DNA of 64,000 nucleotides from an uncultured Candidatus Saccharibacteria bacterium (GTDB taxonomy: Bacteria > Patescibacteriota > Minisyncoccia > Phycocordibacterales > DATDWN01): contig CAYRRP010000003.1 in NCBI GenBank assembly GCA_964426735.1, positions 77,378 to 141,377 of the forward strand, read 5' to 3'. Below the pieces are notes generated by a model that saw nothing but the letters and a program-made list of their open reading frames with translations, did not search any database and was not told the DNA's origin. The position numbers and the translations under genes were made by a program. This document shows positions 2,608 through 47,506 of this stretch, one piece after another. Every line of letters starts with the position of its first letter. Within the stretch, counting starts at the first letter, position 1.

Positions 2608-2695
2608 TGACCGTTATCCTAATACATTTGTACTAATATTGCAAGCTGTGTGCTTCTGGTACGTCCATATTTGACGAACTCCTTTATTGGACTGC

Positions 2696-2741
2696 AAAAA
2701 ATAATTTCCACCGTACAACGAGTACGTCTACAATTATTTTT
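2696..2741. repeat. Short member of the imperfect-palindrome intergenic element family
   Basis: AAAAATAATT..CCGTAC-AACGA-GTACG..AATTATTTTT. It has 10-bp outer arms and a GTAC apex with the same AACGA loop as the element at 46215-46320. Confidence 0.5.
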
Positions 2742-2796
2742 CTGGTCCGCCTCGGATTTCAATCAAATCTGAACATCCTCCGAGTTAAACTTATAC

Positions 2797-3671: not shown

Positions 3672-3711
3672 ATTGGTAAAATTATGCTACCATATTCCCA
3701 CATACAAATAT

Positions 3712-3954
3712 ATGGCTAAAGCATGTCCAATAACTAAAAAGAGTTCTCAGCTCCAGGGCGGATACTCAAACCGAACTCGTGCAACCAAGTTCAACCCAAC
3801 TGGTATCGTACGAAAATACGCAAATCTTCAGAAAAAGAAGATCTATATTCCTGAACTCAAAAAGAGTATCACTATGGAGCTCTCTACTCGAGCGATCAAG
3901 ACTATGCAGAAGAATGGCGTGTATGCGACCCTCAAAAAAGCTAACTTGGTGTAG
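3712..3954 (+). CDS. rpmB: 50S ribosomal protein L28
   Basis: MAKACPITKKSSQLQGGYSNRTRATKFNP...LQKKKIYIPE is L28-like. I prefer the in-frame ATG 3712 over the TTG at 3673 used by the track. Confidence 0.85.
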   Translation: MAKACPITKKSSQLQGGYSNRTRATKFNPTGIVRKYANLQKKKIYIPELKKSITMELSTRAIKTMQKNGVYATLKKANLV

Positions 3955-3968
3955 CAAATAACGGCTCT

Positions 3969-4081
3969 GGTCTTTTTCTCGCATCTCATCTTCTAAAATT
4001 GTAAAAATAATTCTCACCTGCGCACTCAGGCAGGTTCAAATTATTTTTAAATTTTATAAGCGACCTGCGCGAAAAATCCTC
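3969..4081. repeat. Imperfect-palindrome intergenic element (same subfamily as 46215-46320, opposite orientation)
   Basis: The reverse complement aligns with 46215-46320. Shared blocks are TTTCGC..AGGTCGCTTAT.AAATTT.AAAATA and AATTT.AGAAGATGAGAT. Confidence 0.5.
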
Positions 4082-4112
4082 AAAGATTCTTTATATGATA
4101 TAATATGCGCAT

Positions 4113-4349
4113 ATGAAGGAAAATAAGGCAAAAGAACAAATATTTTCTGTAATCTACGAACCTGCACCAGAAGGTGGTTTTGTTGTGTCTGTACCGAGTC
4201 TACCTGGTTGTTACTCTGAAGGAGAGACTTTAGAAGAAGCTCAGAAAAATATCCAAGAAGCTATTGAACTCTATATTGAAAATTCAAAAGAAATCACCAA
4301 CTCCCATCATATAAATCCTATTATTGGCACTGTTTCGGTATATGCCTAA
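4113..4349 (+). CDS. hicB: HicB-family antitoxin (UPF0150 fold)
   Basis: 78 aa. The segment YEPAPEGGFVVSVPSLPGCYSEGETLEEAQKNIQEAIELYIE is typical of HicB. It overlaps the downstream toxin gene by 8 nt. Confidence 0.8.
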   Translation: MKENKAKEQIFSVIYEPAPEGGFVVSVPSLPGCYSEGETLEEAQKNIQEAIELYIENSKEITNSHHINPIIGTVSVYA

Positions 4350-4548
4350 AATACCTCTTCTCACAGATAAAGAGATTATTAGTTTGATTGAAAAGCAAGG
4401 TTTCGTATTCCTCCGACAAAAAGGTAGTCATAAAATCTTTCGGAAAGAAGGAAAGAGTATTGTCGTACCTTGTCACAACAAACAGCTCAAACGAGGTCTT
4501 ACAGCAAAAATCTTAAAAGATGCAGGTATTGATCCGGAAAAACTCTGA
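4342..4548 (+). CDS. hicA: HicA-family mRNA interferase toxin
   Basis: MPKIPLLTDKEIISLIEKQGFVFLRQKGSHKIFRKEGKSIVVPCHNK matches the HicA/YcfA pattern. The start is moved to ATG 4342, in frame with track ORF 4324. Confidence 0.8.
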   Translation: MPKIPLLTDKEIISLIEKQGFVFLRQKGSHKIFRKEGKSIVVPCHNKQLKRGLTAKILKDAGIDPEKL

Positions 4549-4555
4549 AAGCACG

Positions 4556-5431
4556 CTACTTTCTTATAAATCTTTTTCCATCTGACTCAAACACAATCGT
4601 CCCCTCATCCATCGTCACTAAAATCTCCACGTTGTTACTTTTTAAGGTCTCAAGTGTGGCTTGTTTTGGATGTCCGTATGAATTATCTTTTCCAGCAGAA
4701 ATAATCGCAACCTCCGGACTGACTGCTTTTACAAACTCATCTCCTGTTGATGTGTCTGAACCATGATGCGCCACCTTGAGTATATCGGCATCTACATACT
4801 CTTTATATTGGCTTACAATATACTGCTCTATATTTTTTGTCGTATCACCTGTCAACATAATAGACGTATCTTTATACACAAGTCGTGCAACAAGAGAACC
4901 TTCGTTATGTGACACATCTTCGACATCTCTATCAGGGAAGATAATATCAATATATGCACCTCCTCCAAGCAAAATCTTTTGCCCTGTTCGCCCAATCAAC
5001 ACAGGAATCTCTTGTTCTACAAGAATACGCTTAAATTCTTGATATATTGGATTATTGTCAGCTTTCACACCAGGCTCAAGGACTGCTTCAACATCGTACC
5101 GCGACAGAAGCGGTATAAAACCTTCAAAATGATCCCTATCAGGATTAGTTACGATAATCATGTCTATACTTCTATCAATCAGTGGCATTTGTGTAGCAAC
5201 TTCAGAGACAAGCGCACTGCCTGGTCCACCATCAATCACAACCTGATTGCCTGTCGGTGACTCAATAAAAATAGCATCACCTTGTCCTACATCAAGAAAT
5301 GCAACTCGAAGTGGACGTTCTCGTGTTTGAAATACAAAAAATAATACTGCAATTACACACACAAAAAGTGTAAAGAGTGTATATATTTTCCAATAGGTAT
5401 GGATATTTTCTTTAATCCAGTTTTTATTCAT
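4556..5431 (-). CDS. Stand-alone ComEC/Rec2-type metallo-beta-lactamase domain protein with an N-terminal TM anchor
   Basis: 291 aa. It carries VAFLDVGQGDAIFIESPTGNQVVIDGG, TNPDRDHFEGF and KVAHHGS, as in the C-terminal MBL module of ComEC. Confidence 0.8.
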   Translation of the reverse strand: MNKNWIKENIHTYWKIYTLFTLFVCVIAVLFFVFQTRERPLRVAFLDVGQGDAIFIESPTGNQVVIDGGPGSALVSEVATQMPLIDRSIDMIIVTNPDRDHFEGFIPLLSRYDVEAVLEPGVKADNNPIYQEFKRILVEQEIPVLIGRTGQKILLGGGAYIDIIFPDRDVEDVSHNEGSLVARLVYKDTSIMLTGDTTKNIEQYIVSQYKEYVDADILKVAHHGSDTSTGDEFVKAVSPEVAIISAGKDNSYGHPKQATLETLKSNNVEILVTMDEGTIVFESDGKRFIRK

Positions 5432-5577: not shown

Positions 5578-6171
5578 ATGAAAACATTTGAAGAAATGAA
5601 ATTTAATATCGGCGAGCTTATCGGTATTTCTACCGACTCAGTTACCGAACACCTCAAGCTCTACGCTGGATATGTAAAACATGCCAACCTTATCATTTCT
5701 AAAATCGAAGAAATGAGTAAAGATTCAGAAACAAATGCATATGCACTTGGCGAGCTTCAACGACGTTTTGGTTTTGAATTTGATGGTATGAGAAATCACG
5801 AATATTATTTCAAATCACTCGTTGGTGGTGCAACAGCAATCACCGAAGGTGGCGCGCTTCATACTGCAATCGTTGAAGAATTCGGTTCGTTTGATGCATG
5901 GTTTGCACGTTTTAAAGCAGTAGCACTCACTCGTGGTATTGGCTGGGCAATGCTCTACTACGATAAAACAACTGGACGACTTTTAAATGCATGGGTAGAC
6001 GAACAACACCTCGGACATCTCACCGGACTCTCACCTATTCTTGCGCTTGATGTATGGGAACATGCATTTGTACCTGACTACAAAGCATCTGGGAAAAAAG
6101 CATACGTTGAAGATTTTTTCAAAAATCTCAATTGGTCTGTGATTGAAGAAAATTTCAAAAACGCACAATAG
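5578..6171 (+). CDS. Fe/Mn superoxide dismutase family protein (divergent N-terminus)
   Basis: DVWEHAF and MRNHEYYF ligand motifs are present. Only one His lies in the usual HHxKHH region. Confidence 0.8.
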   Translation: MKTFEEMKFNIGELIGISTDSVTEHLKLYAGYVKHANLIISKIEEMSKDSETNAYALGELQRRFGFEFDGMRNHEYYFKSLVGGATAITEGGALHTAIVEEFGSFDAWFARFKAVALTRGIGWAMLYYDKTTGRLLNAWVDEQHLGHLTGLSPILALDVWEHAFVPDYKASGKKAYVEDFFKNLNWSVIEENFKNAQ

Positions 6172-8991: not shown

Positions 8992-9121
8992 AAACAGCAT
9001 TCAGAAGTTGGTGAATATTATATTTAAGCCGTGTCTCGCAGGCTGACGAGCCGAGAGTCAGCGCTGGGCGAGCACGCACAGACAGCGACGGCGAAAAGAT
9101 AATATTCACCAACTTCTGTTT
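8992..9121. repeat. Long hairpin element with 20-bp perfect arms
   Basis: CAGAAGTTGGTGAATATTAT (9002-9021) is the exact reverse complement of 9099-9118. The GC-rich interior has its own GGCTGAC/GTCAGC stem. Confidence 0.7.
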
Positions 9122-14973: not shown

Positions 14974-15053
14974 GGTAAATCAATTTTTGAGTAAAGATAC
15001 GAATTAAATACTTTTAACTTTCTTATTCGTAACTATGTGTATTATTCGTATAT

Positions 15054-15824: not shown

Positions 15825-15897
15825 ATAATATCATAAAATACATAAGCATCACGAATGGACGTCCAACAAAAAAGTAGATGAAGTGATTTTACTGATG

Positions 15898-17379
15898 TTA
15901 TCTTGTCTCTTCCCAAGAAATGATTTGGTATTGATCTGATGTCAATGGAAAACTCGGAGGCGGCCCGTACAATAAGTTGGCATCATAAATAATATCTCGA
16001 CTGTCGTATCCTGTACCGTCTGTGTATGCAAAACCGTATCGTAAACTACTTGCAATCATTCCGTACAGTGTCAATGAAGCTTTACTGTCATCCGAACATG
16101 ATGTTTCGTAATAATACCTTCCTGCACGTCCATTTTGTGCAACAAGTGCCGCATCTATACGAAGATTATTTGCTGAATACTGACCAACGTTTACGTTACC
16201 TTGCGATATAAGAGAGATTACATCTCGTCCATCATAATTTGTATATAATAAATTTGCATTGATTGTAATACTTGGTCGTGTTGCAGGGTTATCTGGGAAA
16301 CGTCCTACTGCAAGCGTCACACGAGCAGTATCAATCTGTCCATCTACCCACACATTATCTTCAAGGAAAATCAATCCATTCGAAGGAATCGCATAATTAC
16401 CGAGCAGTGTCTGCCCTCCTCCACCAGATGTTCGTATACTCCATGAACCCCACCCTGTTTGATTTTGCACATTAGAACAATTATTACCCACAGACTGAAG
16501 TGCAGTAACTCGATACAAATCAAACGTATCATTTGTTTTAAATACTACACGATACCCTTGATACCCTGATGCAGCAAAATATCTTCCTCCTGTTTGTGCA
16601 CCTGATTTAATTGACGCGAGATCAGTCGTCAATCCAACAAAATCAACCGCCGGAAGCGGAAATTGTCTACCTGATTCAAATACATCAGGTCGAGCAGGTA
16701 CACTATTTGGTGGTGCTTCGGCAGAACGAAACGTATCATTCACAGTACCACCTGGCAATGTTACGTGAGTATGCACTCCAAACTCATTGTTTCCTGAATG
16801 ATCAGGGTCATCATATACATCTCGCGAAGACGAAATAACGTTGTGAGCAAGTCCGTCAAAACGAATTCCACCGTTTGAGTGAATAGGGCCATAGACTTCA
16901 GTACCCTCTCCAAATCGAAGACTGTCATTGCTTACCACTGCATATTTTGCGAGAGATGGAATTGCAAAACGAGCAGTAATTGACCGCGCAACAGAAGGAT
17001 CATCGGTGATACGTCCAGTTGATTTTACAGTCACAATAGTAAACCCTGGTTGTGGTGGAGTAATCTCAAGAGTAAAGGAGCCAATCTGATTTCCATCTTT
17101 ATCATAAAATGGACGCACAGAAGGTGTGCTTGTACCAGTACCATCCTGATAGTCAGTCGGTGCATGTGCAAGATGCCATCGATAATAATCGACTCCAGAT
17201 TCTGCAATTTGAAGGGCTTGCTCTCTATACAATGCAAGACGTGACGCTTTAATATTTAATCCTGCCCAAGAAACCAGTCCTCCAATAATCACAACTGCAA
17301 TACTTCCAAACACAAGTGCTTGAACAAGAAGAGAACCTTTTTGTAGTTGGTATCCAGTAGTGGTGTGTATCTTTTTCAT
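15898..17379 (-). CDS. Pilus-associated protein with a PilX_N-like N-terminus
   Basis: 493 aa. It has an N-terminal TM segment plus ...REQALQIAESGVDYY. It is the last gene of the pil operon, with a 4-nt overlap to the upstream gene. Confidence 0.6.
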   Translation of the reverse strand: MKKIHTTTGYQLQKGSLLVQALVFGSIAVVIIGGLVSWAGLNIKASRLALYREQALQIAESGVDYYRWHLAHAPTDYQDGTGTSTPSVRPFYDKDGNQIGSFTLEITPPQPGFTIVTVKSTGRITDDPSVARSITARFAIPSLAKYAVVSNDSLRFGEGTEVYGPIHSNGGIRFDGLAHNVISSSRDVYDDPDHSGNNEFGVHTHVTLPGGTVNDTFRSAEAPPNSVPARPDVFESGRQFPLPAVDFVGLTTDLASIKSGAQTGGRYFAASGYQGYRVVFKTNDTFDLYRVTALQSVGNNCSNVQNQTGWGSWSIRTSGGGGQTLLGNYAIPSNGLIFLEDNVWVDGQIDTARVTLAVGRFPDNPATRPSITINANLLYTNYDGRDVISLISQGNVNVGQYSANNLRIDAALVAQNGRAGRYYYETSCSDDSKASLTLYGMIASSLRYGFAYTDGTGYDSRDIIYDANLLYGPPPSFPLTSDQYQIISWEETR

Positions 17380-19782: not shown

Positions 19783-19810
19783 TTTTATCTTCTCGAATAA
19801 TTACGAACCA

Positions 19811-19920
19811 ATAAAATTGCTTTAGGTGCGCGGCGCAAGAAGGTTTTGGAGCGAGCCTTACTTGTCGTAAGGCAAGTGGCAAAACTTGAATTGCAACAAA
19901 GCAGATGAAGTGATTTTATT
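19811..19920. repeat. Imperfect-palindrome intergenic element (subfamily with 39031-39139 and 40303-40409)
   Basis: The apex is CCTTAC-TTGTC-GTAAGG (19856-19872). The arms are AAAATTGCTTTAGGTGCGCG.. and ..CAAAGCAGATGAAGTGATTTT. It lies between pilC and the pilin genes. Confidence 0.6.
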
Positions 19921-19930
19921 GTGTTCGCGG

Positions 19931-21145
19931 TTAGATTGCATCAGCAAGACTATACGTAGGAGCAAGCATTGAAATAGCAAATATTCCCACCGCTGCACCG
20001 ATCACAATCATAAGCACAGGTTCAATCACAGAAGACATGTCTTTTGTCTTCTGATCTACTTCATCCTCATAAAACTGAGCTACTCCAACCAACATATCCC
20101 CTATTTTTCCTGTTTCCTCACCTACCGAAACCATTTCTCCTACGAAAATAGGGTAAAGATCTTCATGTTTTAAAAAGATTGCAGACATTAATTCTCCTTT
20201 CTGAATCACCTGCTCAATATTATCAAGCACAGCTTTATAATAGGTATTTTGAATAACCTCTTTTGTGACAGAAATAGCGACCACAATATCCACACCTGAG
20301 CTAATAAGTGACGAGAGTGTACGTGCGGTACGTGCCGAATTAACTTGTTTTACAATATCTCCAATCACGGGAGTATGTAATGCAACATAATCAGATAATC
20401 GTTTTCCTTTTGTTGTTCTTAATCCATAATATACACCTGCACACAAAGCAATTACTCCACCAATCATCACGAGAAAATAGTCTTTCATGATATCACTGAT
20501 ACCAATAATGATTCGTGTAGACAACGGGAGCTTAATACCGAGACCTTTAAACGTTTCTGTGAGTGTTGGAACCATGTATACCATCATCAATACACCGATC
20601 ACCGCCATCAGAGAAAAAATAACTGCAGGATACATCATTGCTCCTTTGATTTTCTTATTCAACTGATATGTCTTTTCCATCTGGTTTGAAATATTCTTGA
20701 GTGCAAGAATAAGGTTTCCAGATTCTTCACCTGCACGCACCATTGAAATAAACAAGGTTGAAAATACCTCTGGATAGGCCTTCATTGCTTCAGAGAGAGT
20801 AACACCTTTACTGATTTCTTCTTCAAGAGAGGTGAGGATTTTTTTAAACTGACCTTTTGACTGCCTGCCCATAATAGATATTGCTCGAGTAATCGGAAGT
20901 CCTGCCTCAATCATAGAAGAAAGATTTCGTGCAAACACGATCTTGTCATGAGTTTTTACTTTTCCTGAAAATGGCATCGAAAAAGATCCTGAGAAAAACT
21001 TTTGAGTATGTACTTCGGATGACGAAAGCACCTGTCCCCCTTCTTTTTTTATATCTCTATATAAAGAAAATTTATCGGGAGCTTCTTTTACTCCTTCATA
21101 TTCTTTACCTTCTGCATCAATTGCTTTGTATTTATATTGTGACAT
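19931..21145 (-). CDS. pilC: Type IV pilus platform protein PilC (GspF family)
   Basis: 404 aa with two GspF-like repeats and 3 TM segments. It lies adjacent to pilB. Confidence 0.92.
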   Translation of the reverse strand: MSQYKYKAIDAEGKEYEGVKEAPDKFSLYRDIKKEGGQVLSSSEVHTQKFFSGSFSMPFSGKVKTHDKIVFARNLSSMIEAGLPITRAISIMGRQSKGQFKKILTSLEEEISKGVTLSEAMKAYPEVFSTLFISMVRAGEESGNLILALKNISNQMEKTYQLNKKIKGAMMYPAVIFSLMAVIGVLMMVYMVPTLTETFKGLGIKLPLSTRIIIGISDIMKDYFLVMIGGVIALCAGVYYGLRTTKGKRLSDYVALHTPVIGDIVKQVNSARTARTLSSLISSGVDIVVAISVTKEVIQNTYYKAVLDNIEQVIQKGELMSAIFLKHEDLYPIFVGEMVSVGEETGKIGDMLVGVAQFYEDEVDQKTKDMSSVIEPVLMIVIGAAVGIFAISMLAPTYSLADAI

Positions 21146-23498: not shown

Positions 23499-23529
23499 AA
23501 AAAATTATCAACATTCCAATTAATCACAA

Positions 23530-23648
23530 GCGGTTCAGATACGCCAGATTTCGAGGCAAAATTTGAAAAATCGAGGAGTCATACTTAATAGTACAGTGAC
23601 GAGCATTTTTTAAATTTTAACAAAGAAAGCTGGCAGTATATGAGACGC
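23530..23648. repeat. Imperfect-palindrome intergenic element in the nusA leader
   Basis: Arms GCGGTTCAGATACGCCAG...AAAATTTGAAAAAT and ATTTTTTAAATTTT...CTGGCAGTATATGAGACGC. The apex is CATAC-TTAATA-GTACAG. Confidence 0.5.
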
Positions 23649-26693: not shown

Positions 26694-26754
26694 AGCACAA
26701 TCACTCTATAATACTTTTGTAAAAACCTCGTGTAACGAGGTTTTTACTTGCTTT

Positions 26755-26803
26755 ATTCGTAAAAATTCGTATCATTCGTATATTCGTTAATTCGTATATT
26801 TAT
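26755..26803 (+). promoter_or_regulatory. Array of five ATTCGT(A) heptamers ending in the 14-mer ATTCGTATATTTAT, upstream of tig
   Basis: ATTCGT starts at 26755, 26765, 26774, 26782 and 26790, giving spacings of 10, 9, 8 and 8. The 14-mer at 26790-26803 lies 4 nt before the ATG. Confidence 0.5.
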
Positions 26804-31465: not shown

Positions 31466-31544
31466 AGTAGACAGTCAATAGTCTTTAGTAAAAACAAAAA
31501 ATCACCTTTCGGTGATTTTTTGTTAATAACTTCGACTGTCTACT
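31466..31544 (+). terminator. rny terminator embedded in a long imperfect palindrome
   Basis: The core is AAAAAATCACC-tttc-GGTGATTTTTT (31495-31520). The outer arms are AGTAGACAGTC (31466-31476) and GACTGTCTACT (31534-31544). The 11-mer GACTGTCTACT recurs at 2154-2164. Confidence 0.7.
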
Positions 31545-31669
31545 CATGACTTATGACTACACACTTCCTTGTCCGTCAACCCCTTGCACTCGAAAACCCT
31601 TGGTATATAATAGCTATATAGTAGATAGGGTGAGTCTTGAAAGATTACAAATTTAGTTTTACAACATCC

Positions 31670-31942
31670 ATGAATAAAGCATCATTGGTAGACGCAGTAT
31701 ATGCAGAGCTCGGTGGTACAAAAGTACAGGCTGAGAAAGTGGTTGATATTATTATCGACAACATTGTTGCTACTTTGAAAAAAGGTGGTGAAGTGTCTAT
31801 CGCGGGTCTTGGTATCTTTTCAACAAAAACTCGAGCGGCTCGACAGGCTCGAAACCCACGAACAGGTGAATCAATCTCTGTTCCTGCAATGAAAGTTCCT
31901 AAATTCCGCGCAGCTAAGGGTCTTAAGGACGCCGTAAAATAA
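31670..31942 (+). CDS. hup: DNA-binding protein HU
   Basis: MNKASLVDAVYAELGG...GLGIFSTKTRAARQARNPRTGESISVPAMKVPKFRAAKGLKDAV. The start is set at ATG 31670. Confidence 0.92.
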   Translation: MNKASLVDAVYAELGGTKVQAEKVVDIIIDNIVATLKKGGEVSIAGLGIFSTKTRAARQARNPRTGESISVPAMKVPKFRAAKGLKDAVK

Positions 31943-32158
31943 TAAAATCCATATTTGGTGAATTTCTTTGTTGCTTCACCTTTTTCTCTCCCGCGCAGTA
32001 CTCTTGTACAACTTGGTCAAGAAAAAGGTTTGTGCCTCAAACTTCACTCAAATCTGAAATTTTCTTACGTTTTATTCTCTAGAGAATATCAAAAAACACT
32101 CCAACCGGGGTGTTTTTTGATTACAAAAAGCCCACCAACATGGCTCTTTGTTGGTGGG

Positions 32159-33153: not shown

Positions 33154-33301
33154 TGGTGCGGGTGGGGAGAATCGGTCACGAGTAATTCTGGTTCCGTCGA
33201 ACCAGAATTCTCTCGACCCCGACTCGCGACCCACTCTGGTGAGCGGGTGCCCCCGCTCCGTCTTTCGATTCCCCATGCAAAGCTCTGCTTTGCTCACCCG
33301 C
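33154..33301 (-). ncRNA. tRNA-flanking structured element, copy R4 (unknown family), with tRNA-Gly-like acceptor ends and an encoded CCA
   Basis: 5' GCGGGUG and 3' CACCCGCA-CCA pair like the neighbouring tRNA-Gly acceptor stem. The interior is homologous to 37390-37496 and 37148-37275, with covarying hairpins. Confidence 0.6.
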
Positions 33302-33353
33302 ACACATATCAAAAAACCGGCATAAAACCGGTTTTTTGATATGTGTGCGGGTG
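33295..33353. repeat. 26-bp perfect inverted repeat joining the tRNA-Gly 3' end to element R4
   Basis: CACCCGCACACATATCAAAAAACCGG (33295-33320), a 7-nt loop, then the exact reverse complement (33328-33353). The inner part is an A6CCGG/CCGGT6 terminator-like hairpin. Confidence 0.95.
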
Positions 33354-33416
33354 GGGAGAATCGAACTCCCGTATACTGCTTGGAAGGCAGTCATTCTACC
33401 ACTAAATTACACCCGC
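33346..33416 (-). tRNA. tRNA-Gly (anticodon UCC)
   Basis: GCGGGTGTAATTTAGTGGTAGAATGACTGCCTTCCAAGCAGTATACGGGAGTTCGATTCTCCCCACCCGCA. This is a 71-nt cloverleaf with anticodon loop CTTCCAA. Confidence 0.95.
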
Positions 33417-37496: not shown

Positions 37497-37545
37497 AGTG
37501 CCCATACTCATAAATAAGGCCTCCAAAAGCCTTAAAATCACTCAT

Positions 37546-39018
37546 ATGAATACAAACTTCACTATCCCTGTCGAAGTGTCACGTGTAACACAAACCCTCG
37601 AAAATGCCGGTTTTGAGGCTTTTTTGGTTGGTGGATGTGTACGAGATCTTATCCTCAACAAAAAACCAAAAGATTGGGATGTTACTACCAACGCAACACC
37701 TGAGCAAATCATTGCTTTGTTTCCACATACCTTTTACGAAAACAACTTTGGAACAGTTGGTGTTGTTTCAGATGAAACAGAAGATGACACTCTTAAAACT
37801 ATTGAAGTTACGCCATACCGTCTTGAATCAGAGTATTCTGACAATCGACGCCCAGACGCTGTTACTTTTTCACAAAATCTCACAGATGACTTAAGGCGAC
37901 GCGACTTCACCATTAACGCCCTTGCATACTCAGTATCTAAAGGACAACTCACTGATGTCTTTAATGGACAAGCTGATATTTCTGCTCAAACTATACAAAC
38001 AGTAGGGAATGCGGTCGAAAGACTCACTGAAGATGCCCTTCGTATCATGCGAGCAGTGCGGTTTCATGTGGAACTTGGCTTTATCCTTTCACGTGAAACG
38101 GAAAAAGCGGTACTTGAACACGGTCATTTACTACAAAACATCTCAAAGGAACGCATTCGTGACGAATTTACAAAGATTATTATGTCTCCGCAGCCAATGA
38201 ATGGCTTACTCATGCTGAAAAAGCTGAATTTACTTCAGTATATTGTACCAGAACTGGAAAAAACTATTGGGGTAGAGCAGAACCGGGCACATTCATACGA
38301 TGTATGGGAACATTTACTTCGAAGCCTCCAGACTGCAGCAGATAAGAACTGGCCTCTTGATATTAGACTTACCGCTTTATTTCACGATATTTCAAAACCT
38401 GAGACACGTCGATGGGGAAAAGAGCAGAATACGTGGACATTTTACGGTCATGAAGTAGTTGGTTCACGTGTAACACGGAAAATACTTACTGATTTGCGAT
38501 ATCCGAATAAACTAATTGATAAAGTGGTGACAATGGTGCGATGGCATATGTTTTTTTCTGACACAGAACAGATAAGCCTCTCTGCGGTCCGTAGAATGAT
38601 CGTAAATGTTGGACGAGAGAATATCTGGGATTTGATGAATGTACGCATCTGCGACCGTGTAGGAACTGGTAGACCCAAAGAAGATCCGTACCGCCTCCGC
38701 AAATACCATGCAATGATAGAGGAGGCTCTTCGTGACCCGATTACTGTAGGAATGTTGAAAATAGATGGTAAACGTTTAATCGATGTTACACAGGGAACAC
38801 CTGGTCCTAAAATAGGGTATACACTTCATGCATTACTCGAAGAGGTACTCGAAGATCCAACTAAAAACACTGTGGAATATTTAGAAAAACGCTCTGTTGA
38901 GCTCTATACTATGGATGAGATCGAATTAAAAAAGCTCGGTGAACAAGGTAAACAAACGAAAGAAGAAATAGATCAGCAGGAAATCTCAAAAATTCGTAAA
39001 GGACACAAAGTAAAGTAG
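37546..39018 (+). CDS. cca: CCA-adding enzyme / tRNA nucleotidyltransferase with HD domain
   Basis: GGCVRDLIL...DWDV, RRDFTINA, and an HD region (LFHDISKP). The start is set at ATG 37546 (TAAAAT lies 7 nt upstream). Confidence 0.9.
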   Translation: MNTNFTIPVEVSRVTQTLENAGFEAFLVGGCVRDLILNKKPKDWDVTTNATPEQIIALFPHTFYENNFGTVGVVSDETEDDTLKTIEVTPYRLESEYSDNRRPDAVTFSQNLTDDLRRRDFTINALAYSVSKGQLTDVFNGQADISAQTIQTVGNAVERLTEDALRIMRAVRFHVELGFILSRETEKAVLEHGHLLQNISKERIRDEFTKIIMSPQPMNGLLMLKKLNLLQYIVPELEKTIGVEQNRAHSYDVWEHLLRSLQTAADKNWPLDIRLTALFHDISKPETRRWGKEQNTWTFYGHEVVGSRVTRKILTDLRYPNKLIDKVVTMVRWHMFFSDTEQISLSAVRRMIVNVGRENIWDLMNVRICDRVGTGRPKEDPYRLRKYHAMIEEALRDPITVGMLKIDGKRLIDVTQGTPGPKIGYTLHALLEEVLEDPTKNTVEYLEKRSVELYTMDEIELKKLGEQGKQTKEEIDQQEISKIRKGHKVK

Positions 39019-39030
39019 TTCTGCAAATAA

Positions 39031-39139
39031 GTTAAACTGCTTCAGATGCTAGGCGCGAGAGAATTTGTGAGTGAGTTGTACTTGTCGTACGGTGAGCGAA
39101 CAAATTTGAATCGCAACAACGCAGATGGAGTAATTTAAC
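39031..39139. repeat. Imperfect-palindrome intergenic element (close copy of 40303-40409)
   Basis: GTTAAACTGCTTCAGATGCTAGGCGCGAGAG...TTGTAC-TTGTC-GTACGG...CAACGCAGATGGAGTAATTTAAC. Confidence 0.7.
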
Positions 39140-39497
39140 TTATTTAACAACAAAAAACCGCCCAAGGTGGCGTCATTTGTCGCAAAGACGGCTCACGGGC
39201 GGCTAAAGAAGTATTTCCCAGCAAGAATAAGGATTTGATAAATATCTCAATCTTAAAATATATAGTAGATAGTGTAGATATGTATATCTCTTGTCCTATC
39301 GAACCAAGAAACCTTCATGGGGGAGAACCTGCAGATTCTCAAATGTACAAACGCACAACTTTATGTGTAAAGAACTTTAAACGACAGAATTGTTTGTTTC
39401 TTTTTTGATGAAACTCTCGATCCTGTTCTGGAGTAACTATATCAGACAGATAAAAGTCATGTAAAGGACTATGCTGTGGATAACTTTGTCTTATTAA

Positions 39498-40268
39498 TTA
39501 TATAGCAATGTCCAATTGAAGAGGACAGTGGTCTGACCCTAAAATATCATTGTGTATAGTCATATTTTTCACATTTGAAAGAAGTGATGTGTCAACAAAA
39601 AAATAATCGATTCTCCATCCAACATTTCTACTTCGTGCAAATGTTTTCATATCCCAGTATGTGTATATATCTTTTGCATCAGGATTTTTTTCTCTCCATA
39701 CATCAACAAAATTATTTTGCACCACTTCATCAATCCATGCTCGTTCGATAGGGAGGAAGCCTGTATTTTTCTCATTTTCTTTTGGTCGAGCAAGATCAAC
39801 AGCGGTATGTGCAGTATTTACATCTCCACAGAAAATCACCTTCATACCTTTTTTACGAAGCTTAAGAATAAACACAAGAAAGTGTTTATAAAACTCGAGT
39901 TTATATGCAAGACGCTCTGGACCACCTCCTCCGTTAGGGAAATAGCAGTTCAGTAACACAAATTCATCAAAATACGCAACGATGAGACGCCCTTCTTGAT
40001 CCATTTCGGGAATACCCATACCATACTCGACTTTATTTGGTTCAATCTTTGAGTAAATAGCGACACCGCTGTACCCCTTACGTGTTTTTGAGGAATTAAA
40101 ATATGAAAAATACCCTAAAGGAGAGCGTACTTCATCTGGAAGTTGATGTGATTCTGATTTAGTTTCCTGTATACAAAAAATATCCGGACTTTGGTCAATA
40201 AGCCACTGAAACGCACCTTTTTTAAAAGATGCCCGTGCACCATTTACATTCCATGAGATTATTTTCAT
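39498..40268 (-). CDS. xthA: Exodeoxyribonuclease III
   Basis: 256 aa. It carries MKIISWNVNG, QETK, GDVNTAH and SDHCP. Confidence 0.93.
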   Translation of the reverse strand: MKIISWNVNGARASFKKGAFQWLIDQSPDIFCIQETKSESHQLPDEVRSPLGYFSYFNSSKTRKGYSGVAIYSKIEPNKVEYGMGIPEMDQEGRLIVAYFDEFVLLNCYFPNGGGGPERLAYKLEFYKHFLVFILKLRKKGMKVIFCGDVNTAHTAVDLARPKENEKNTGFLPIERAWIDEVVQNNFVDVWREKNPDAKDIYTYWDMKTFARSRNVGWRIDYFFVDTSLLSNVKNMTIHNDILGSDHCPLQLDIAI

Positions 40269-40302
40269 TACTAAAAGATATTACCACACCTTGAATGAAG
40301 AA

Positions 40303-40409
40303 GTTAAATTGCTCCAGATGCTAGGCGCGAGAAAATTTATGAGTGAACCGTACTTGTAGTACGGTGAATGAATAAATTTGAATCGTAACAACGCAGATGG
40401 AGTAATTTA
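40303..40409. repeat. Imperfect-palindrome intergenic element (close copy of 39031-39139)
   Basis: It is in the same orientation as 39031-39139. I counted 12 mismatches over about 107 aligned nt by hand. Its right end overlaps the stop codon of the recombinase gene. Confidence 0.7.
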
Positions 40410-41393
40410 CTTCTTTCCGTGAAATTTCTTGTGAATGTCACGCAGGTGCTTGTCGGTTACGTGTGTATAAATCTGGGTCGTAATAATGCTCGAATGACCC
40501 AACAAAGCCTGAACTGAGCGAATATCTGCTCCGTTTGAAAGTAAATCAGTCGCAAAGAGATGACGCATGGTGTGCGGTGTTACACGTTTTGAAATACCTG
40601 CTTTGATTGCATATTGTTTGATGATGCGCTCTATTGTCCGTTTGGTCAGGGGACTTGCTTCTTTACTAGTAATTTCTCGCCCTACCTGCACAAAAAGAGC
40701 ATCATTCATATCTTTACGGAGAGACAAGTACGCCTTGAGACAATTTTTTGCAGTATCTGAAAGAAATACTACTCGCACCTTTCCTCCTTTTCCTCGAATA
40801 GAAAGTTCATCGGAAGTCAGATCAATATCAGACGTGAGGGAACAGAGCTCAGAAACACGCAAACCTGTTGAAAATAATAATTCGAGAATTGCTTTGTCAC
40901 GAACTGTCTTCAAATCACTACCTTTAGGAGCATCGAGAAGGCGAGCGAGCTCATTTTCTGTAATAAGATCAAGAAGACGCTCTCCAGTTTTTGCAAGGTC
41001 GATACGCTCAGGCGCAAGAGAAGTGACACCTTCTCGAGCAAGAAACTTGAGAAACGCCCGGAGTGCAATCAGGTGATAGTTTTGAGTTTTTTTAGAAAGA
41101 GTATTTTTTTTGGCTTTATCAAGTCCTGAAAGTTGTCTGTTGAGCCACAAACGAAACTCTCGTACCACCATATCGGTGATATCTCCTGGTTTTGAAGCTT
41201 TTGTTTGCTCAAGAAAGCGTACAAGGTAATGTAAATAGTTTTGCCGAGTCTGGATAGATCGCCCTCTTTCTATTTCAAGATAGTTGAGAAAATCACGAAG
41301 AAAACGCCCTAAGGGGGTTTTCGGTATTCTTTCTTCTTCTGTCAAAGCAGGTTTGCGTTTAGACGTCTCTTTTTTAATCTTTTCCTCTGCCAT
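40407..41393 (-). CDS. Tyrosine recombinase, XerC/XerD-like
   Basis: 328 aa. It carries TGLRVSEL, HTMRHLFAT and LGHSSIITTQIYTHV (R-H-R-Y catalytic set). Confidence 0.9.
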   Translation of the reverse strand: MAEEKIKKETSKRKPALTEEERIPKTPLGRFLRDFLNYLEIERGRSIQTRQNYLHYLVRFLEQTKASKPGDITDMVVREFRLWLNRQLSGLDKAKKNTLSKKTQNYHLIALRAFLKFLAREGVTSLAPERIDLAKTGERLLDLITENELARLLDAPKGSDLKTVRDKAILELLFSTGLRVSELCSLTSDIDLTSDELSIRGKGGKVRVVFLSDTAKNCLKAYLSLRKDMNDALFVQVGREITSKEASPLTKRTIERIIKQYAIKAGISKRVTPHTMRHLFATDLLSNGADIRSVQALLGHSSIITTQIYTHVTDKHLRDIHKKFHGKK

Positions 41394-43649: not shown

Positions 43650-43714
43650 TAAAAATTTATCAAGTTCGCAATGTTGAATGTACATACTTGATATATTTCT
43701 GACTTGATAGGCTT

Positions 43715-43749
43715 TTGACTTGATGGACTTGATGGACTATCATGTACAT
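43715..43749 (+). promoter_or_regulatory. Promoter TTGACT-17-TATCAT placed 6 nt before the ATG (leaderless geometry)
   Basis: TTGACT 43715-43720, TATCAT 43738-43743, ATG 43750. It is embedded in GACTTGATRG repeats. Confidence 0.55.
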
Positions 43750-44109: not shown

Positions 44110-44165
44110 CCACAAACCCATCAGAGCTACTGTAAATACGAAAAGCATTTCTGACTTGATAGACT

Positions 44166-44201
44166 TTGGACTTTATAGACTTGATGGACTAAAATAGACA
44201 T
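44166..44201 (+). promoter_or_regulatory. Promoter TTGGAC-18-TAAAAT placed 6 nt before the comM ATG
   Basis: TTGGAC 44166-44171, TAAAAT 44190-44195, ATG 44202. It shares the 17-mer ATTTCTGACTTGATAG with the upstream promoter region. Confidence 0.55.
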
Positions 44202-46131: not shown

Positions 46132-46214
46132 TGGTTACTCCTAAGTAACATTATACAATAATTATGTAAATTAAGCAATAAAAATGTTTTTGGCTTTTAA
46201 AAGTATAAAACTTT

Positions 46215-46320
46215 CACAATTTCGCCAAGGTCGCTTATGAAATTTTAAAATATTCCTCACCTTACAACGAGTAAGGTTCGTCATATTTTAAAATTTCAGA
46301 AGATGAGATTGGTGAAATTT
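46215..46320. repeat. Imperfect-palindrome intergenic element
   Basis: The arms include a 16-bp perfect TGAAATTTTAAAATAT pairing. The apex is CCTTAC-AACGA-GTAAGG. It abuts the stop of the M23 peptidase gene. Confidence 0.55.
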
Positions 46321-46327
46321 GGAAGTT

Positions 46328-47506
46328 TTAGAATGGGTTTCGGGCACCTCGTACTTCGAAATGGAGATGAGTCCCCGTCGACTTTCCTGTCGATCCCATG
46401 TTTCCAATTACCTGACCTTGAGATACATTTTGCCCTACTGAGACTTGCACACCTGAAAGGTGAGCATAGAGGGTTTGTGTACCATTTCCATGTTTAATAA
46501 CCACATACGAACCGTATCCTCCATTGTACCCACTACTTTTAGCAACAATCACTTCTCCATCTGCAGCAGCAAGAATATCTGAACCAAAATGAGAAACGAG
46601 GTCAACACCATTGTGTCCATGTATACCCTGACTCTTCACTCCACCCACAATCGGACGAATATAATATCCACTATATGAAGGTGCAGAAAGATACTGTTGA
46701 ACTTTCTTCACAGATGTTGATGTGGTTGTTTTTGTCGTAGAATGCCCAGAGAACATTTCTCCATCAGGGATAATAACAACATCACCCACTGAAAGTTTTT
46801 CACCGGCAGTAAGATCATTAAACTGAGTGATTTCTTCAAGATCCCCACTGTATTTCTTGGCGATAGATTGTAGCGTATCTCCTTTTTTAACCACATGACG
46901 TACTCCAGAAACAGGAAGAATAACCAATCGATCACCAGGGGATACTGTATTTCCTGAAATATCGTTTGACCATACAATTGTATTTGTTGTCACATTAAAC
47001 ATCTTGGCGATTCCAGAAAGAGTGTCTCCTTTTCGTACCACATAAATAGTAATCTGATCTGACGACAGATGATCTTTTGCTGTTGCAGCAACACCAGAAG
47101 TCTCAGCAAGCAATGATGAGTCATCAACAATAGCAATATCACCACCACCAAGAGGTTGGTTTGATGGTGCAGTAGCCGCTTGAAGTAAAGCCATATTTTG
47201 TGAATTTTGGACAAATTCAACATCAGCCGATGCATCTTTAAACATACCAAACACAAAAGATCTGATCCCTGCAGAGGCAACAAAAGGGATAGCGATAAGC
47301 AGACATGCAAAAATAAACTTTGTGAAAAGTTTTATTATAGATTCTTTGTCCGCACCCTTATCGTATGACCCAACTCGACTTCTCCGTACTTTACGGACTG
47401 TCTTGTTTTTTAGACCATTTTGATGAGGAGCTTCTTGTGAGTTTCCCCTAATACGCGTTATGTTAGTTTCAATTCTGCATTTCTGTAAATGGCTCTGTTG
47501 AGCCAT
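46328..47506 (-). CDS. LysM-repeat M23 family peptidoglycan endopeptidase
   Basis: 392 aa. It has LysM units (YVVRKGDTLSGIAKMF, HVVKKGDTLQSIAKKY) and an M23 core (HNGVDL...GSTGKSTGTHLHFEV). Confidence 0.88.
   Translation of the reverse strand: MAQQSHLQKCRIETNITRIRGNSQEAPHQNGLKNKTVRKVRRSRVGSYDKGADKESIIKLFTKFIFACLLIAIPFVASAGIRSFVFGMFKDASADVEFVQNSQNMALLQAATAPSNQPLGGGDIAIVDDSSLLAETSGVAATAKDHLSSDQITIYVVRKGDTLSGIAKMFNVTTNTIVWSNDISGNTVSPGDRLVILPVSGVRHVVKKGDTLQSIAKKYSGDLEEITQFNDLTAGEKLSVGDVVIIPDGEMFSGHSTTKTTTSTSVKKVQQYLSAPSYSGYYIRPIVGGVKSQGIHGHNGVDLVSHFGSDILAAADGEVIVAKSSGYNGGYGSYVVIKHGNGTQTLYAHLSGVQVSVGQNVSQGQVIGNMGSTGKSTGTHLHFEVRGARNPF

Follow-up and report, generated by a model that had tools for sequence, protein, structure and literature searches.

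A long imperfect hairpin at 19796-19931 occupies the spacer that separates two minus-strand genes; its 3' end is 10 nt from the stop codon of one, a PilC/T2SSF gene (19931-21145), and its 5' end is 21 nt from the start of the following one. The plus strand is the better folder here, with a minimum free energy of -54.4 kcal/mol compared to -38.8 kcal/mol for the opposite strand. The window, by which we mean the whole 64-kb stretch of DNA analysed, holds eight full copies and one remnant of this kind of element, which belong to several subfamilies and together fill roughly 15% of the intergenic spacers. They are given below on their model strand, that is, the strand that folds best, with scores from R1, a covariance model built from copies of other genomes and the three canonical copies of the window.

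2664-2779, minus strand: second subfamily, full-length; R1 55.4 bits, E 3e-11; basal arms TTCAGATTTG...CAAATATGGA
3969-4086, minus strand: third subfamily, second copy; R1 19.3 bits
15867-15899, plus strand: remnant, 3' arm only; 33 nt that match the 3' arm of 19811-19920 at 88% (blastn E 1e-4)
19796-19931, plus strand: canonical copy, core 19811-19920, outer stem 19804-19930; R1 111.8 bits (19804-19920)
23529-23648, plus strand: divergent copy that keeps the GAGGC/AACAAAG loop; R1 34.3 bits (match 23529-23643)
31948-32064, minus strand: second subfamily; R1 35.5 bits, E 3e-6
39018-39148, plus strand: canonical copy; R1 111.6 bits (match 39024-39140)
40290-40420, plus strand: canonical copy; R1 112.2 bits (match 40296-40412)
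46208-46323, plus strand: third subfamily, AGGTCGCTTAT...AGAAGATGAGAT; R1 32.8 bits

Most of these copies lie at the end of a gene. The copy at 40290-40420 overlaps the stop codon of an Xer-type recombinase gene (40407-41393, minus strand), and in its outer stem the final codons of Xer (GAAGAAGTAAAT) are base-paired to their complement at the far side of the element. The copy at 46208-46323 is 4 nt from the stop of a LysM/M23 peptidase gene (46328-47506, minus strand), and that at 31948-32064 begins 5 nt past the stop of the HU gene (31637-31942, plus strand; identified by Pfam) in the usual antisense orientation, with a folding z-score of -6.3 on the model strand and -5.2 on the other. At 3969-4086, the element is located 14 nt after the stop of a small plus-strand open reading frame (3673-3954) and 26 nt before hicB; the reading frame is conserved in locus L015 (tblastx), where it is also followed by an element, at 5600-5712. 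The remnant at 15867-15899 forms no hairpin, and abuts the stop of a minus-strand gene (15898-17379) in the usual orientation. Among the few copies that are sense-oriented to the abutting gene is 39018-39148, which lies 5 nt past the stop of a CCA-adding/PolyA_pol gene (37498-39018, plus strand); the Exo_endo_phos gene that converges on it ends 357 nt off, with a terminator of its own in between. Two further copies lie ahead of genes. One, at 2664-2779, is in sense orientation 56 nt upstream of the rpsL start (neighbors assigned by Pfam) and is therefore not at a stop codon, and the other, at 23529-23648, is approximately 10-15 nt upstream of the nusA start (23659).

Most of these loci had been picked out in a sequence-only reading of the window, which proposed a dispersed family of hairpins in intergenic spacers. 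The main copies it listed are real; however, its 2696-2741 is only the apex of the full-length element at 2664-2779, and the copy at 31948-32064 was missed. The truncated copy that it placed at about 15848-15897 corresponds to the 33-nt remnant of the 3' arm. Three long palindromes that it had considered related (8992-9121, 31466-31544 and 58319-58440) do not belong to the family, as BLAST returned only their self-matches and R1 gave 15 bits for the first, approximately 20 bits over 34 nt for the second and no match for the third. The second contains an ordinary terminator composed of an A-tract, a hairpin and a T-tract.

The hairpins themselves are far more stable than their composition predicts. 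Compared with dinucleotide shuffles, the window copies have z-scores of -5 to -9, and none of 200 shuffles was as stable. With outer stems included, z was -6.9 for 19796-19931, -6.3 for 31944-32068, -5.6 for 39018-39148, -9.2 for 40290-40420 and -9.4 for 46205-46328. The copies are also related by sequence. Those at 39031 and 40303, which are 1.2 kb apart, share 87% identity (blastn E 1e-32), the 19811 copy is 72-74% identical to both (E 1e-16), and the third-subfamily copies at 46215-46320 and 3969, which are in opposite orientation, are 71% identical (E 4e-11). As previously described, the differences between the 39031 and 40303 copies include compensatory changes and U.G pairs in place of C-G pairs. 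These E-values, R1 scores of up to 112 bits and a covariation signal that was reached by none of 500 shuffles (see below) indicate a relationship that goes beyond AT-rich palindromy, and the family consists of several subfamilies that have a basal core in common.

Both in the window and in other CPR loci, the repeat unit is a long, imperfect hairpin of approximately 115-140 nt. Its outermost part is a stem of 10-12 bp that differs at each locus and often takes in the stop and last codons of the neighboring gene, such that coding sequence is paired with its complement downstream of the gene. This stem is itself subject to compensatory change, as seen in the pair CCAGATAA/TTATCTGG in L043 compared to CCAAATAA/TTATTTGG in L051. 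Many outer stems are A-tract/T-tract pairs. Inside the outer stem lie conserved arms of 16-20 nt in inverted orientation, which form the strongly conserved basal core, 5'-TAAAATTGCTTTAGATGC GAGGC ... AACAAAGCAGATGRAGTRATTTTA-3'. The core contains two internal loops, one 2x2 GA/GA and one purine-rich, and is followed by an inner stem that is variable and covarying and by an apex of the form GUAC-loop-GUAC. The apex and arm words reported from the sequence-only reading are real and conserved across copies, and the apex is deleted or expanded in some. Terminal structure varies, and element length ranges from 103 to approximately 220 nt; the variants of 170-220 nt carry additional hairpins only, with no open reading frames. 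Two other interpretations of the conserved motifs were set aside. The GAUGA/GA motifs resemble a K-turn or box C/D, but the 3-nt bulge that such a motif has is absent beside the 2x2 GA/GA loop, which is therefore read as a symmetric internal loop. The 3' arm can also be read as a mini-ORF (AUG-RAG-URA) with GAGG as a split Shine-Dalgarno sequence, but pairing explains the variable positions concerned and we take this as coincidence.

Covariation was assessed in an alignment of 34 copies collected with a 20-mer from one arm, a search pattern that did not include the 5' arm. The 5' arm is nevertheless nearly invariant in the alignment, despite not having been searched for. Compensatory changes were found at 20 of 34 base pairs, and 93.7% of paired cells are complementary, compared to 79% in shuffles and 37-49% when the partners were slid; none of 500 shuffles reached the observed covariation.

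The same 20-mer revealed this hairpin in approximately 35 loci of Patescibacteria metagenome-assembled genomes (MAGs). In 35 CPR loci the covariance model identified 54 distinct copies, 19 of which have no match to the 20-mer used for the scan, and it identified none in 14 non-CPR control loci that contain chance matches to the 20-mer. The density in the CPR loci scanned is approximately one copy per 8-13 kb, and in every case examined the copies are intergenic, save for overlaps of a few nucleotides with a gene end. A number of short-read contigs terminate at a copy or close to one. Between genomes in which ribosomal proteins S12 and S7 are only 63-69% identical, the core hardly differs. Several subfamilies coexist in the window, and several coexist also in L028, a distant Parcubacteria MAG, in which 4648-4764 is 76% identical to the window copy at 2664-2779 and 5981-6098 is 71% identical to that at 46208-46323. 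Copies are retained at orthologous gene ends, including several sets among the other loci. The copy at the PilC stop is found also in the close relatives L030 and L012, with its apex deleted in both, and the LysM/M23 gene end bears a copy in L064 (39.4 bits).

The sequence-only reading was not aware of any description of elements of this type for CPR-like genomes, and the searches made here agree. Against Rfam 15 at gathering score, tRNAs are the sole matches in the 64-kb window. With the threshold relaxed to E = 1 for three loci, and to E = 10 for 39000-40440, no match overlapped any element. No description of this element was found in the full-text literature searched, and for CPR/Patescibacteria neither Rfam 15 nor that literature holds a repeat family or structured noncoding element of this kind. 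A phage origin was also considered and rejected, as viral contigs gave just two matches, neither of which folds into the hairpin.

The position of the elements is highly constrained. A converging gene has its stop codon no more than 20 nt from the 3' end of the model in 50 of the 65 copies, in agreement with the proposal that copies abut stop codons, and where just one end of a copy is at a stop, the preferred orientation outnumbers the other 47 to 3 (p = 4e-11). Approximately 10 copies are located in 5' UTRs in the other orientation. The spacer from the element to the start of the next gene is often just 18-60 nt. An orientation rule set by the replication strand, as expected for single-stranded lagging-strand template, was rejected: both orientations are present in the window, throughout which the cumulative GC skew falls, and both occur within 1.2 kb in L031 and in L046. 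Orientation tracks the adjacent gene and not replication.

Given this orientation, the model strand is antisense to the abutting gene. It is the more stable strand in 62 of 62 copies, with a mean of -42.1 kcal/mol compared to -30.4 kcal/mol for its complement. The asymmetry is evident in the types of pair: 123 G.U cells against 10 A.C cells in the whole alignment, 21 against 5 in the locus-specific outer stems alone, and 80 against 31 in the variable interior alone, where 39 of 45 copies fold better on the model strand. The G.U pairs, the 2x2 GA/GA internal loop and the purine-rich loops are carried by the model strand. On the mRNA-sense strand, A.C mismatches take the place of the conserved G.U pairs, and mismatched pyrimidines that of the GA/GA and purine-rich loops, such that this strand folds worse; it is thus on the non-mRNA strand that selection for pairing can be seen. 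The fixed orientation, the antisense-strand folding and the very deep conservation of the core all go beyond what had been observed from the sequence-only reading.

That the elements are not ordinary terminators, as had been argued from their lack of U-tracts, is borne out. They have no short GC-rich stem followed by a U-tract, having instead an AT-rich base and a length of 115-140 nt. Separate classical terminators, consisting of a hairpin and a T-run, are found within 80 nt after 14 of 44 canonical copies, compared to 1.05 expected from shuffles, and many of these downstream hairpins have A- and T-tracts on both sides. A classical terminator thus follows a third of copies, which places the element inside the 3' UTR. 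At an rpsO stop and an RNase Y stop that are free of the element, an ordinary terminator occupies the same position. On the model strand, no promoter-like hexamer was found at a fixed distance upstream, and any possible antisense promoter would be separated from the element by a terminator hairpin in a third of loci.

Presence/absence polymorphism, which the sequence-only reading had put forward as a check, was found between close relatives. The whole hairpin at 23529-23648, upstream of nusA, is missing at the orthologous site of L030, where both flanks align and the flanking proteins are approximately 97% identical. At this one clean junction, which is of low complexity and leaves the alignment ambiguous by a few bases, no direct repeat or target-site duplication was seen, nor any defined cleavage motif. 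Only the window has an element after the Xer stop; it is absent from L061 (97% amino acid identity) and L064 (82%), and the Xer C-terminus is the same in all three. Conversely, an element follows the DksA stop in L061, L064 and L065 and is absent from the window; the spacers at this site are too diverged to align for exact insertion boundaries. At the rpsO and rpsL stops, L037, L015 and L039 carry an element and the window does not. Gain and loss between close relatives takes the form of indels of the whole hairpin, and remnants, apex-deleted copies and apex-expanded copies also exist. No candidate mobilizing gene accompanies the copies: Pfam searches and precomputed annotations show no transposase and no RAYT gene in the 64-kb window, no RAYT gene was found next to copies, and all-against-all clustering of 269 ORFs from those loci gave no protein family common to more than five loci.

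The best reading of the elements is as a new REP/ERIC/Correia-like family of CPR bacteria. The likeness proposed earlier holds in that this is a dispersed palindromic family, with the 54 further copies in CPR loci and none in controls; however, the elements carry the defining features of no named family. ERIC/IRU of enterobacteria and YPAL of yersiniae are imperfect palindromes of approximately 127-170 bp. They are like the CPR elements in size, in forming one long imperfect hairpin per unit, in lying in transcribed intergenic regions near stop or start codons with co-transcription with the neighbors, in having a core conserved across genera, in presence/absence polymorphism and in having no known transposase. 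The CPR elements differ in having no sequence similarity to them, a nearly fixed orientation to the upstream gene (47:3), an outer stem that incorporates the stop codon, antisense-favored folding, a core conserved across a far deeper radiation and no TA duplication at the one clean junction.

REP sequences are imperfect palindromes of 20-40 nt with a 5' GTAG, and two REPs in inverted arrangement make up a REPIN. In REPIN-RAYT systems a single-copy RAYT gene, encoding a Y1 HUH transposase, is found in the genome and is usually flanked by REPs. REPs of E. coli stabilize mRNA and, near stop codons, affect translation termination; REP families are usually species- or genus-specific. REP/BIME and REPIN-RAYT of E. 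coli and Pseudomonas resemble the CPR elements as high-copy extragenic palindromes in 3' UTRs and between cistrons, and their populations are long-lived and vertically inherited and are believed to be processed, as hairpins of single-stranded DNA, by a trans-acting enzyme present in single copy. The CPR elements share high copy number (one per 8-13 kb), extragenic location and single-strand hairpins (here with z -5 to -9 and strand-specific folding) with REPs, but not the REP unit, as their arms AAATTGCTTTAGATGC and GCAGATGAAGTAATTT pair with one another and are not palindromes themselves, and GTAG is not conserved. Correia elements of Neisseria (CREE/NEMIS) are hairpin-forming MITEs of approximately 100-155 bp that are present in hundreds of copies near genes, are co-transcribed and provide RNase III sites, terminators and promoters. 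The CPR elements are likewise hairpin-forming, high-copy near genes and co-transcribed. Correia elements differ in that they end in inverted repeats of 26 bp, duplicate a TA at the target, contain an IHF site, insert in both orientations and are confined to a single genus. In common with MITEs generally, the CPR elements have conserved inverted repeats in a unit of 115-140 nt (MITE range 100-400 bp) and show presence or absence of the whole unit, at the site upstream of nusA and at the Xer, DksA, rpsO and rpsL stops.

Parallels extend to integron attC sites, in which only the hairpin base is conserved, terminal structure varies over a similar range of lengths, the antisense strand folds and the site starts at or over the stop codon of an ORF, as it does here. 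However, the attC core sites R'' RYYYAAC and R' GTTRRRY are absent, the core base reading TAAAATTGC...GTAATTTTA with no conserved AAC/GTT pair. The copies are 1-15 kb apart, on both strands and after housekeeping genes rather than in arrays. The only tyrosine recombinase is of the Xer type, scoring 137 bits with the integron integrase model against a cutoff of 265, and 239 with XerA against 220. With an Xer-type rather than an IntI recombinase and no arrays, an integron was rejected. TIGR-Tas systems consist of tandem hairpin arrays with box C/D-like motifs and dual spacers adjoining a Tas (Nop-domain) gene (PMC12045711). Their stem arrays are excluded by architecture, since the CPR copies are single and dispersed, with no recurrent neighbor gene.

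We consider it about an even prospect that, in CPR bacteria of the Parcubacteria type, the elements form a non-autonomous, dispersed family of mobile palindromic repeats that is probably processed in the form of a single-stranded hairpin. The strand antisense to the abutting gene would be copied to new sites as a hairpin of single-stranded DNA, through a trans-acting enzyme of HUH/Y1 or recombinase type that would be encoded elsewhere in the genome or, alternatively, through template switches between short stretches of homology (for example the TAAAAT/stop-codon region). Selection would keep mainly those insertions in which the weaker-folding strand is the mRNA and ribosomes still reach the stop codon; orientation may be set by this selection against a strong mRNA hairpin. 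Retained copies would be co-transcribed and, as hairpins in 3' UTRs or between cistrons, would probably protect the mRNA or partition it, in the manner of REP elements of E. coli, ERIC and Correia elements. Several points weigh against mobility. Hairpin-mediated deletion could mimic insertion, the window has no transposase and the 35 loci have no recurrent neighbor gene, and an orientation that follows the gene is not predicted by the classical model of lagging-strand single-stranded DNA transposition. REP or MITE families do not usually show core conservation of such depth, which could mean a host function tied to conserved machinery, and persistence at orthologous gene ends fits function as well as neutrality.

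Function to the host is central to a second explanation, possible but rather doubtful in our estimation, in which the element is a beneficial cis-acting RNA module in the 3' UTR or between cistrons that spreads only by occasional duplication. It might be an mRNA-stabilizing cap, an RNase processing site or a structure coupled to translation termination, recognized through its conserved internal loops by a conserved CPR protein. The strict stop-codon position and orientation, the location in the transcribed 3' UTR ahead of classical terminators, the conservation of the basal loops across very divergent genomes, the copies kept at orthologous gene ends and the ordinary terminators at element-free rpsO and RNase Y stops all suit such a module, but the mRNA-sense strand is the worse folder with pairing selected on the other strand, the element comes and goes freely at housekeeping genes among close relatives, and approximately 10 copies are in 5' UTRs in the other orientation. 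In another reading, transcription of the model strand would yield independent small RNAs or antisense RNAs, converging on the 3' end of the neighbor gene. G.U pairs that interchange with both Watson-Crick alternatives, the 2x2 GA/GA and purine-rich loops and the strong covariation are what an RNA would show; however, the lack of a promoter-like hexamer at a fixed upstream distance, the spacers that are often 18-60 nt, the terminators lying between element and possible promoter in a third of loci and, by extrapolation from one copy per 8-13 kb, the roughly one hundred antisense RNAs required per genome make this highly improbable.

If the folding strand is DNA, it could constitute a recombination site, comparable to attC or the attP hairpin of CTX phage, that is used by the conserved Xer-type recombinase. 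Folding of the strand antisense to the ORF with the site at or over the stop codon matches the attC bottom strand, as do a conserved base with unpaired spacers and terminal structures giving lengths of 103 to approximately 220 nt; Xer is 70-77% identical across Parcubacteria, which could explain the deeply conserved core, and one copy overlaps the xer stop. We nonetheless judge such sites very unlikely. The RYYYAAC/GTTRRRY core sites and an integron-type integrase are lacking, the recombinase being of XerC/D/XerA type, and essential genes (rpsL, rpsO, pilC, hup, dksA) are followed by dispersed copies of either orientation, with no co-oriented cassette arrays. Polymorphisms involve the hairpin alone and not gene-plus-hairpin cassettes, recombination between direct copies would delete essential genes, and adjacency to xer is one gene end among approximately 50. 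Finally, location at gene ends and the many A-tract/T-tract outer stems are what would be seen if the hairpins were ordinary intrinsic terminators or chance AT-rich palindromes of no common origin. This is hardly tenable and is already refuted by homology (E to 1e-32), R1 scores of up to 112 bits, core identity in distant genomes and the covariation controls; it also conflicts with folding z-scores of -5 to -9, the absence of a short GC-rich stem with a U-tract and the separate terminators after 14 of 44 copies.

As a REP/ERIC/Correia-like family, the elements have practical consequences for work on CPR bacteria. The covariance model lets annotators mask or label copies, some of which overlap gene ends; the elements may explain assembly breaks; and they are markers for strain typing of uncultured CPR. 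CPR/Patescibacteria genomes are tiny and streamlined, and they carry an abundant, deeply conserved element that is tied precisely to stop codons. The puzzle is that pairing is selected on the strand antisense to the mRNA, which could expose a single-stranded DNA mobilization system or a new gene-end mechanism. It is conceivable, if unlikely, that the elements are more than selfish DNA and are the cis sites of a Parcubacteria-wide system in which a conserved host enzyme, Xer-type or an unrecognized HUH, recognizes the folded antisense strand on the stop codon. Were that so, the elements would be dispersed folded-DNA sites like attC or CTX attP, or a new factor-dependent gene-end device; the near-identity of the core, where S12 and S7 have only 63-69% identity, would reflect co-evolution with essential conserved machinery, and approximately a hundred gene ends would be involved in each minimal genome.

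Long imperfect hairpins do lie where the sequence-only reading of the window had placed them; they are 124-136 nt long once the pairing flanks are counted, and fold with z values between -5.6 and -9.4 relative to shuffles that preserve dinucleotides, 0 of 200 of which were as stable. When each candidate hairpin was compared with the window by blastn, 19811-19920, 39031-39139 and 40303-40409 formed a canonical group (E values of 1e-16 to 1e-32, the last two being 87% identical), 15867-15899 matched as a 33-nt remnant of the 3' arm of this group, and 46215-46320 and 3969-4081 formed a second related pair in opposite orientations (E = 4e-11). A covariance model built from copies in other genomes and the three canonical window copies was then run on the window with filters off, and the total came to eight copies and one remnant in 64 kb.

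Copies of the element in the window, with covariance-model scores
19811-19920, canonical copy, about 112 bits
39031-39139, canonical copy, about 112 bits
40303-40409, canonical copy, about 112 bits
2664-2779, copy, 55 bits
31948-32064, copy, 35.5 bits
23529-23643, copy, 34 bits
46208-46323, copy, 33 bits
3969-4086, copy, 19 bits

The copy at 31948-32064 is new, having been missed from sequence inspection. A hairpin had been reported at 2696-2741 and is present, but it is only the apex of the full copy at 2664-2779. Three palindromes that had been listed as related, 8992-9121, 31466-31544 and 58319-58440, gave only self-matches in the window, and 31466-31544 includes an ordinary A-tract/GC-stem/T-tract terminator. 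The 58319-58440 palindrome is composed of the 8-mer words ATTCGTAT / TATACGAATA, which have 19 matches with at most one mismatch in the window versus 4.4 expected and are clustered at 26754-26800 (just upstream of the trigger-factor gene at 26808), 58320-58427 (upstream of the gene at 58441) and 15043-15052 (between the TIM and PGK genes); the pattern resembles that of a repeated operator or promoter motif rather than a family hairpin. At 8992-9121, a 130-nt hairpin with a GC-rich centre (MFE -57.7) lies 7 nt past the stop of minus-strand recJ (9129); in position and size it matches family members, but it has no sequence relation to them (15 bits, E = 0.47), and it may be a gene-end hairpin that is unrelated or has diverged extremely far.

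The same element occurs in other genomes. A 20-mer of the 3' arm, CAAMGCAGATGRAGTRATTT, was searched in one genome per GTDB species (596 Gb) and found at 51 loci, about 35 of which belong to Patescibacteria MAGs labelled Nomurabacteria, Kaiserbacteria, Zambryskiibacteriota, Paceibacteria/Paceibacterota, Parcubacteria, Minisyncoccia or plain "bacterium", with some third-party assemblies labelled "Saccharibacteria". At those roughly 35 loci the same hairpin is present, with the 20-mer as its 3' arm. Matches in Bacteroidales, Pelagibacteraceae, archaea and other groups show no hairpin fold and number 14, versus about 9 that we estimate would be expected by chance in 596 Gb. When 31 copies from these loci were aligned with three window copies, the 5' arm AAATTGCTTTAGATGC was nearly invariant, though absent from the search pattern. 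In the fetched loci the covariance model detected 54 distinct copies in 35 CPR loci, 19 of them without the 20-mer, and none in 14 non-CPR loci; the family first proposed from the window thus has further copies elsewhere, at a density of roughly 1 per 8-13 kb. One good copy (79.5 bits) lies at 1692-1809 of L025, a 23.6-kb contig whose MAG carries a non-CPR name, Candidatus Azotimanducaceae, and could reflect a mis-binned contig or a genuine non-CPR occurrence. In L043, another of the compared loci, 100 nt at 2476-2577 match positions 2120-2221 of the bacterial 23S rRNA model (55 bits) and adjoin a tRNA and the element copy at 2310-2428; possible explanations are an rRNA fragment and a ribosomal-protein leader mimic.

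The window carries genes for the type IV pilus, TIM, PGK, RecJ, ComEC, NusA, trigger factor, ClpP, RNase Y, HU, S12, S7 and S15, and every named homologue of its Xer recombinase (70-77% identity) comes from Parcubacteria-type CPR. Close relatives L030 and L012 share 90-99% amino-acid identity across 16.3-24.8 kb of the window. In three other loci, L015, L039 and L010, identity to the window in S12, S7, RNase Y, ClpP and HU is only 58-69%, indicating that the element core is almost unchanged between very distant genomes. Furthermore, the nearest kin of the window's second and third subfamilies are found in a distant MAG (L028 at 4648, 7442 and 5981; 67-76% identity), so several subfamilies coexist in more than one lineage. 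Three short-read Logan contigs encoding exactly the window's proteins (L004, L007 and L001) end at or near element copies, at about 3.9, 23.6 and 39.1 kb of the window; by derived coordinates, SRR14271372_8727 covers about 3.9-23.6 kb and SRR14271365_21962 ends at about 39107, within the 39024-39140 copy. Element repeats appear to break short-read assemblies.

RNAalifold returned a single long hairpin of 34 pairs, with compensatory double changes in 20. Standard pairs make up 93.7% of cells, versus 79.2% when partners are exchanged at random between sequences and 37-49% when they are displaced by 1-3 columns; double-change cells number 158 versus 48 expected, and 0 of 500 shuffles match the observed value on any of five measures. 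Together with E values down to 1e-32 and scores of about 112 bits, these shuffles place the similarity beyond that of chance palindromes. On the modelled strand, which is the better-folding one, the 5' half reads outer stem of 10-12 bp (different at each locus), TAAAATTGCTTTA, GA, TGC, GAGGC, variable stem of 13-15 bp and GA; the apex is CCGTAC - N4-6 - GTACGG; and the 3' half reads stem, AACAAA, GCA, GA, TGRAGTRATTTTA and outer stem. The two opposed GA dinucleotides form a 2x2 GA/GA internal loop, and the purine-rich GAGGC/AACAAA loop is kept even in divergent subfamilies in the model alignments. The apex is deleted in the L012 and L030 copies (103 nt) and enlarged by extra hairpins to 170-220 nt at L060 7418, L028 2393 and L026 7372, so the conserved part is the base of the hairpin. 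In 42 copies the outer stem extends ungapped pairing 10-12 bp past the conserved core with a sequence that differs per locus, frequently reaching into the gene to take in its stop codon and final two or three codons, and in orthologous copies a coding change is mirrored on the far arm (CCAGATAA...TTATCTGG in L043 versus CCAAATAA...TTATTTGG in L051).

The modelled strand was more stable than its complement in all 62 copies first examined (mean -42.1 vs -30.4 kcal/mol). Alignment cells contain 123 G.U versus 10 A.C, the latter being G.U on the other strand. Much of this excess comes from five positions where G.U swaps with both Watson-Crick alternatives, and the bias persists among independent sequences: it is 21 to 5 in the locus-specific outer stems, and the variable interior, folded alone, has 80 G.U versus 31, the modelled strand being better there in 39 of 45 copies. 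On the mRNA strand, the GA/GA and purine-rich loops become pyrimidine mismatches. Taken together, G.U bias, folding asymmetry and loops indicate that the strand under selection for pairing is the one antisense to the gene that the element abuts.

According to our own ORF maps, 50 of 65 copies have the 3' end of the modelled strand no more than 20 nt from the stop codon of an opposite-strand gene (usually between -6 and +12 nt), bearing out the suspected association with gene ends, and the 5' end is at a stop in only 6. Where a single end of the copy is at a stop, the ratio is 47 to 3 (binomial p = 4e-11), so the abutting gene's mRNA carries the reverse complement of the modelled strand from the stop codon on. 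The 39024 copy is a rare case of sense orientation after a stop codon. About ten copies, mostly divergent, precede a start codon by 12-31 nt and have the modelled strand in the sense direction, including those in the window at 23529 before nusA and 2664 before rpsL. The abutting genes are diverse housekeeping genes (pilC, xer, hup, a LysM/M23 peptidase gene, dksA, rpsL, rpsO and rny). A classical hairpin with a T-run lies within 80 nt beyond the element in 14 of 44 canonical loci, versus 1.05 in shuffles, which places the element inside the upstream gene's 3' UTR, before the real terminator, and agrees with the earlier view that it is not an ordinary terminator. Given these far-side terminators, spacers to the next gene of often 18-60 nt, and the finding of no promoter-like hexamer at a fixed distance upstream on the modelled strand, RNA transcribed from that strand is unlikely.

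Other features adjoin some copies or genes. A HicB/HicA toxin-antitoxin pair (4113-4548) directly adjoins the 3969-4086 copy; in L061, a close relative, a rearranged site is occupied by a PemK/PhdYeFM pair. The 270 nt that separate the M50 peptidase gene from the rpsL-upstream hairpin copy include, at 2916-2974, 7.4 near-perfect tandem copies of AACCGAAG (98% matches). At 33295-33353, an inverted repeat of 26 perfectly matched bp and a 7-nt loop overlaps the 3' end of tRNA-Gly(UCC) (33345-33416, minus strand); flanked by runs of A and T on either side, it probably serves as a bidirectional terminator.

Presence/absence polymorphism is seen between relatives as whole-hairpin differences at several sites. 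L030 lacks the entire hairpin found upstream of nusA at 23529-23648, although both flanks are alignable there and the flanking proteins are about 97% identical; no direct repeat flanks the hairpin at this junction. At the xer stop, the window has an element that is lacking both in L061, whose Xer is 97% identical with the C-terminus and stop unchanged, and in L064 (Xer 82%). This copy is 87% identical to a copy 1.2 kb away, and the likeness of the xer coding-sequence end AAGAAGTAAAT to the outer arm AATAAGTTAAAT of that neighbour suggests that the xer-stop copy may have integrated at short homology including the stop codon. Elements absent from the window are found at the stops of dksA (L061, L064, L065), rpsL (L015, L039), rpsO (L037, the window having instead a short classical terminator) and rny (L010, the window having the terminator-containing palindrome 31466-31544). 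The two window spacers flanking the dksA-like gene (43686-43738 and 44153-44190) contain a tandem or near-tandem 9-mer, GACTTGATA(G), and the second is the site of the element in L061 and L064. Copies after pilC and the LysM/M23 gene are common to the window and relatives, and several orthologous gene-end sets among the MAG loci carry copies. Therefore, the family turns over locally yet persists for very long.

A host RNA function, the main rival explanation, accounts for the position and conservation of the element but leaves both the strand asymmetry and the free gain and loss unexplained. An attC-like or Xer-substrate site would share the strand logic and the stop-codon position, yet this reading fails on sequence, array and integrase alike: the neighbouring recombinase is of XerC/D/XerA type and not an integron integrase, and the copies are not organized as cassette arrays. 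TIGR stem arrays, which are tandem and adjoin Tas genes (PMC12045711), were likewise rejected, as copies of this family are single and dispersed. No Rfam family matches the element, no gene family was found to recur beside copies, no transposase is present in the window and no element was found in viral contigs.

The evidence best supports a family of non-autonomous palindromic repeats in the broad class of REP/REPIN, ERIC and Correia elements, as first proposed, with traits of its own: a stop codon embedded in the outer stem, nearly fixed orientation, a conserved base with varying apex, pairing selected on the antisense strand, and a core kept across a deep radiation. A literature search of incomplete coverage found no description of the element, so we regard it as undescribed, and as a new family for CPR bacteria, only provisionally. 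As such a repeat, the unit would be handled as a single-stranded DNA hairpin during copying, most surviving insertions would be in the orientation in which the mRNA receives the weaker basal stem, and retained copies would act as 3'-UTR or intercistronic hairpins.
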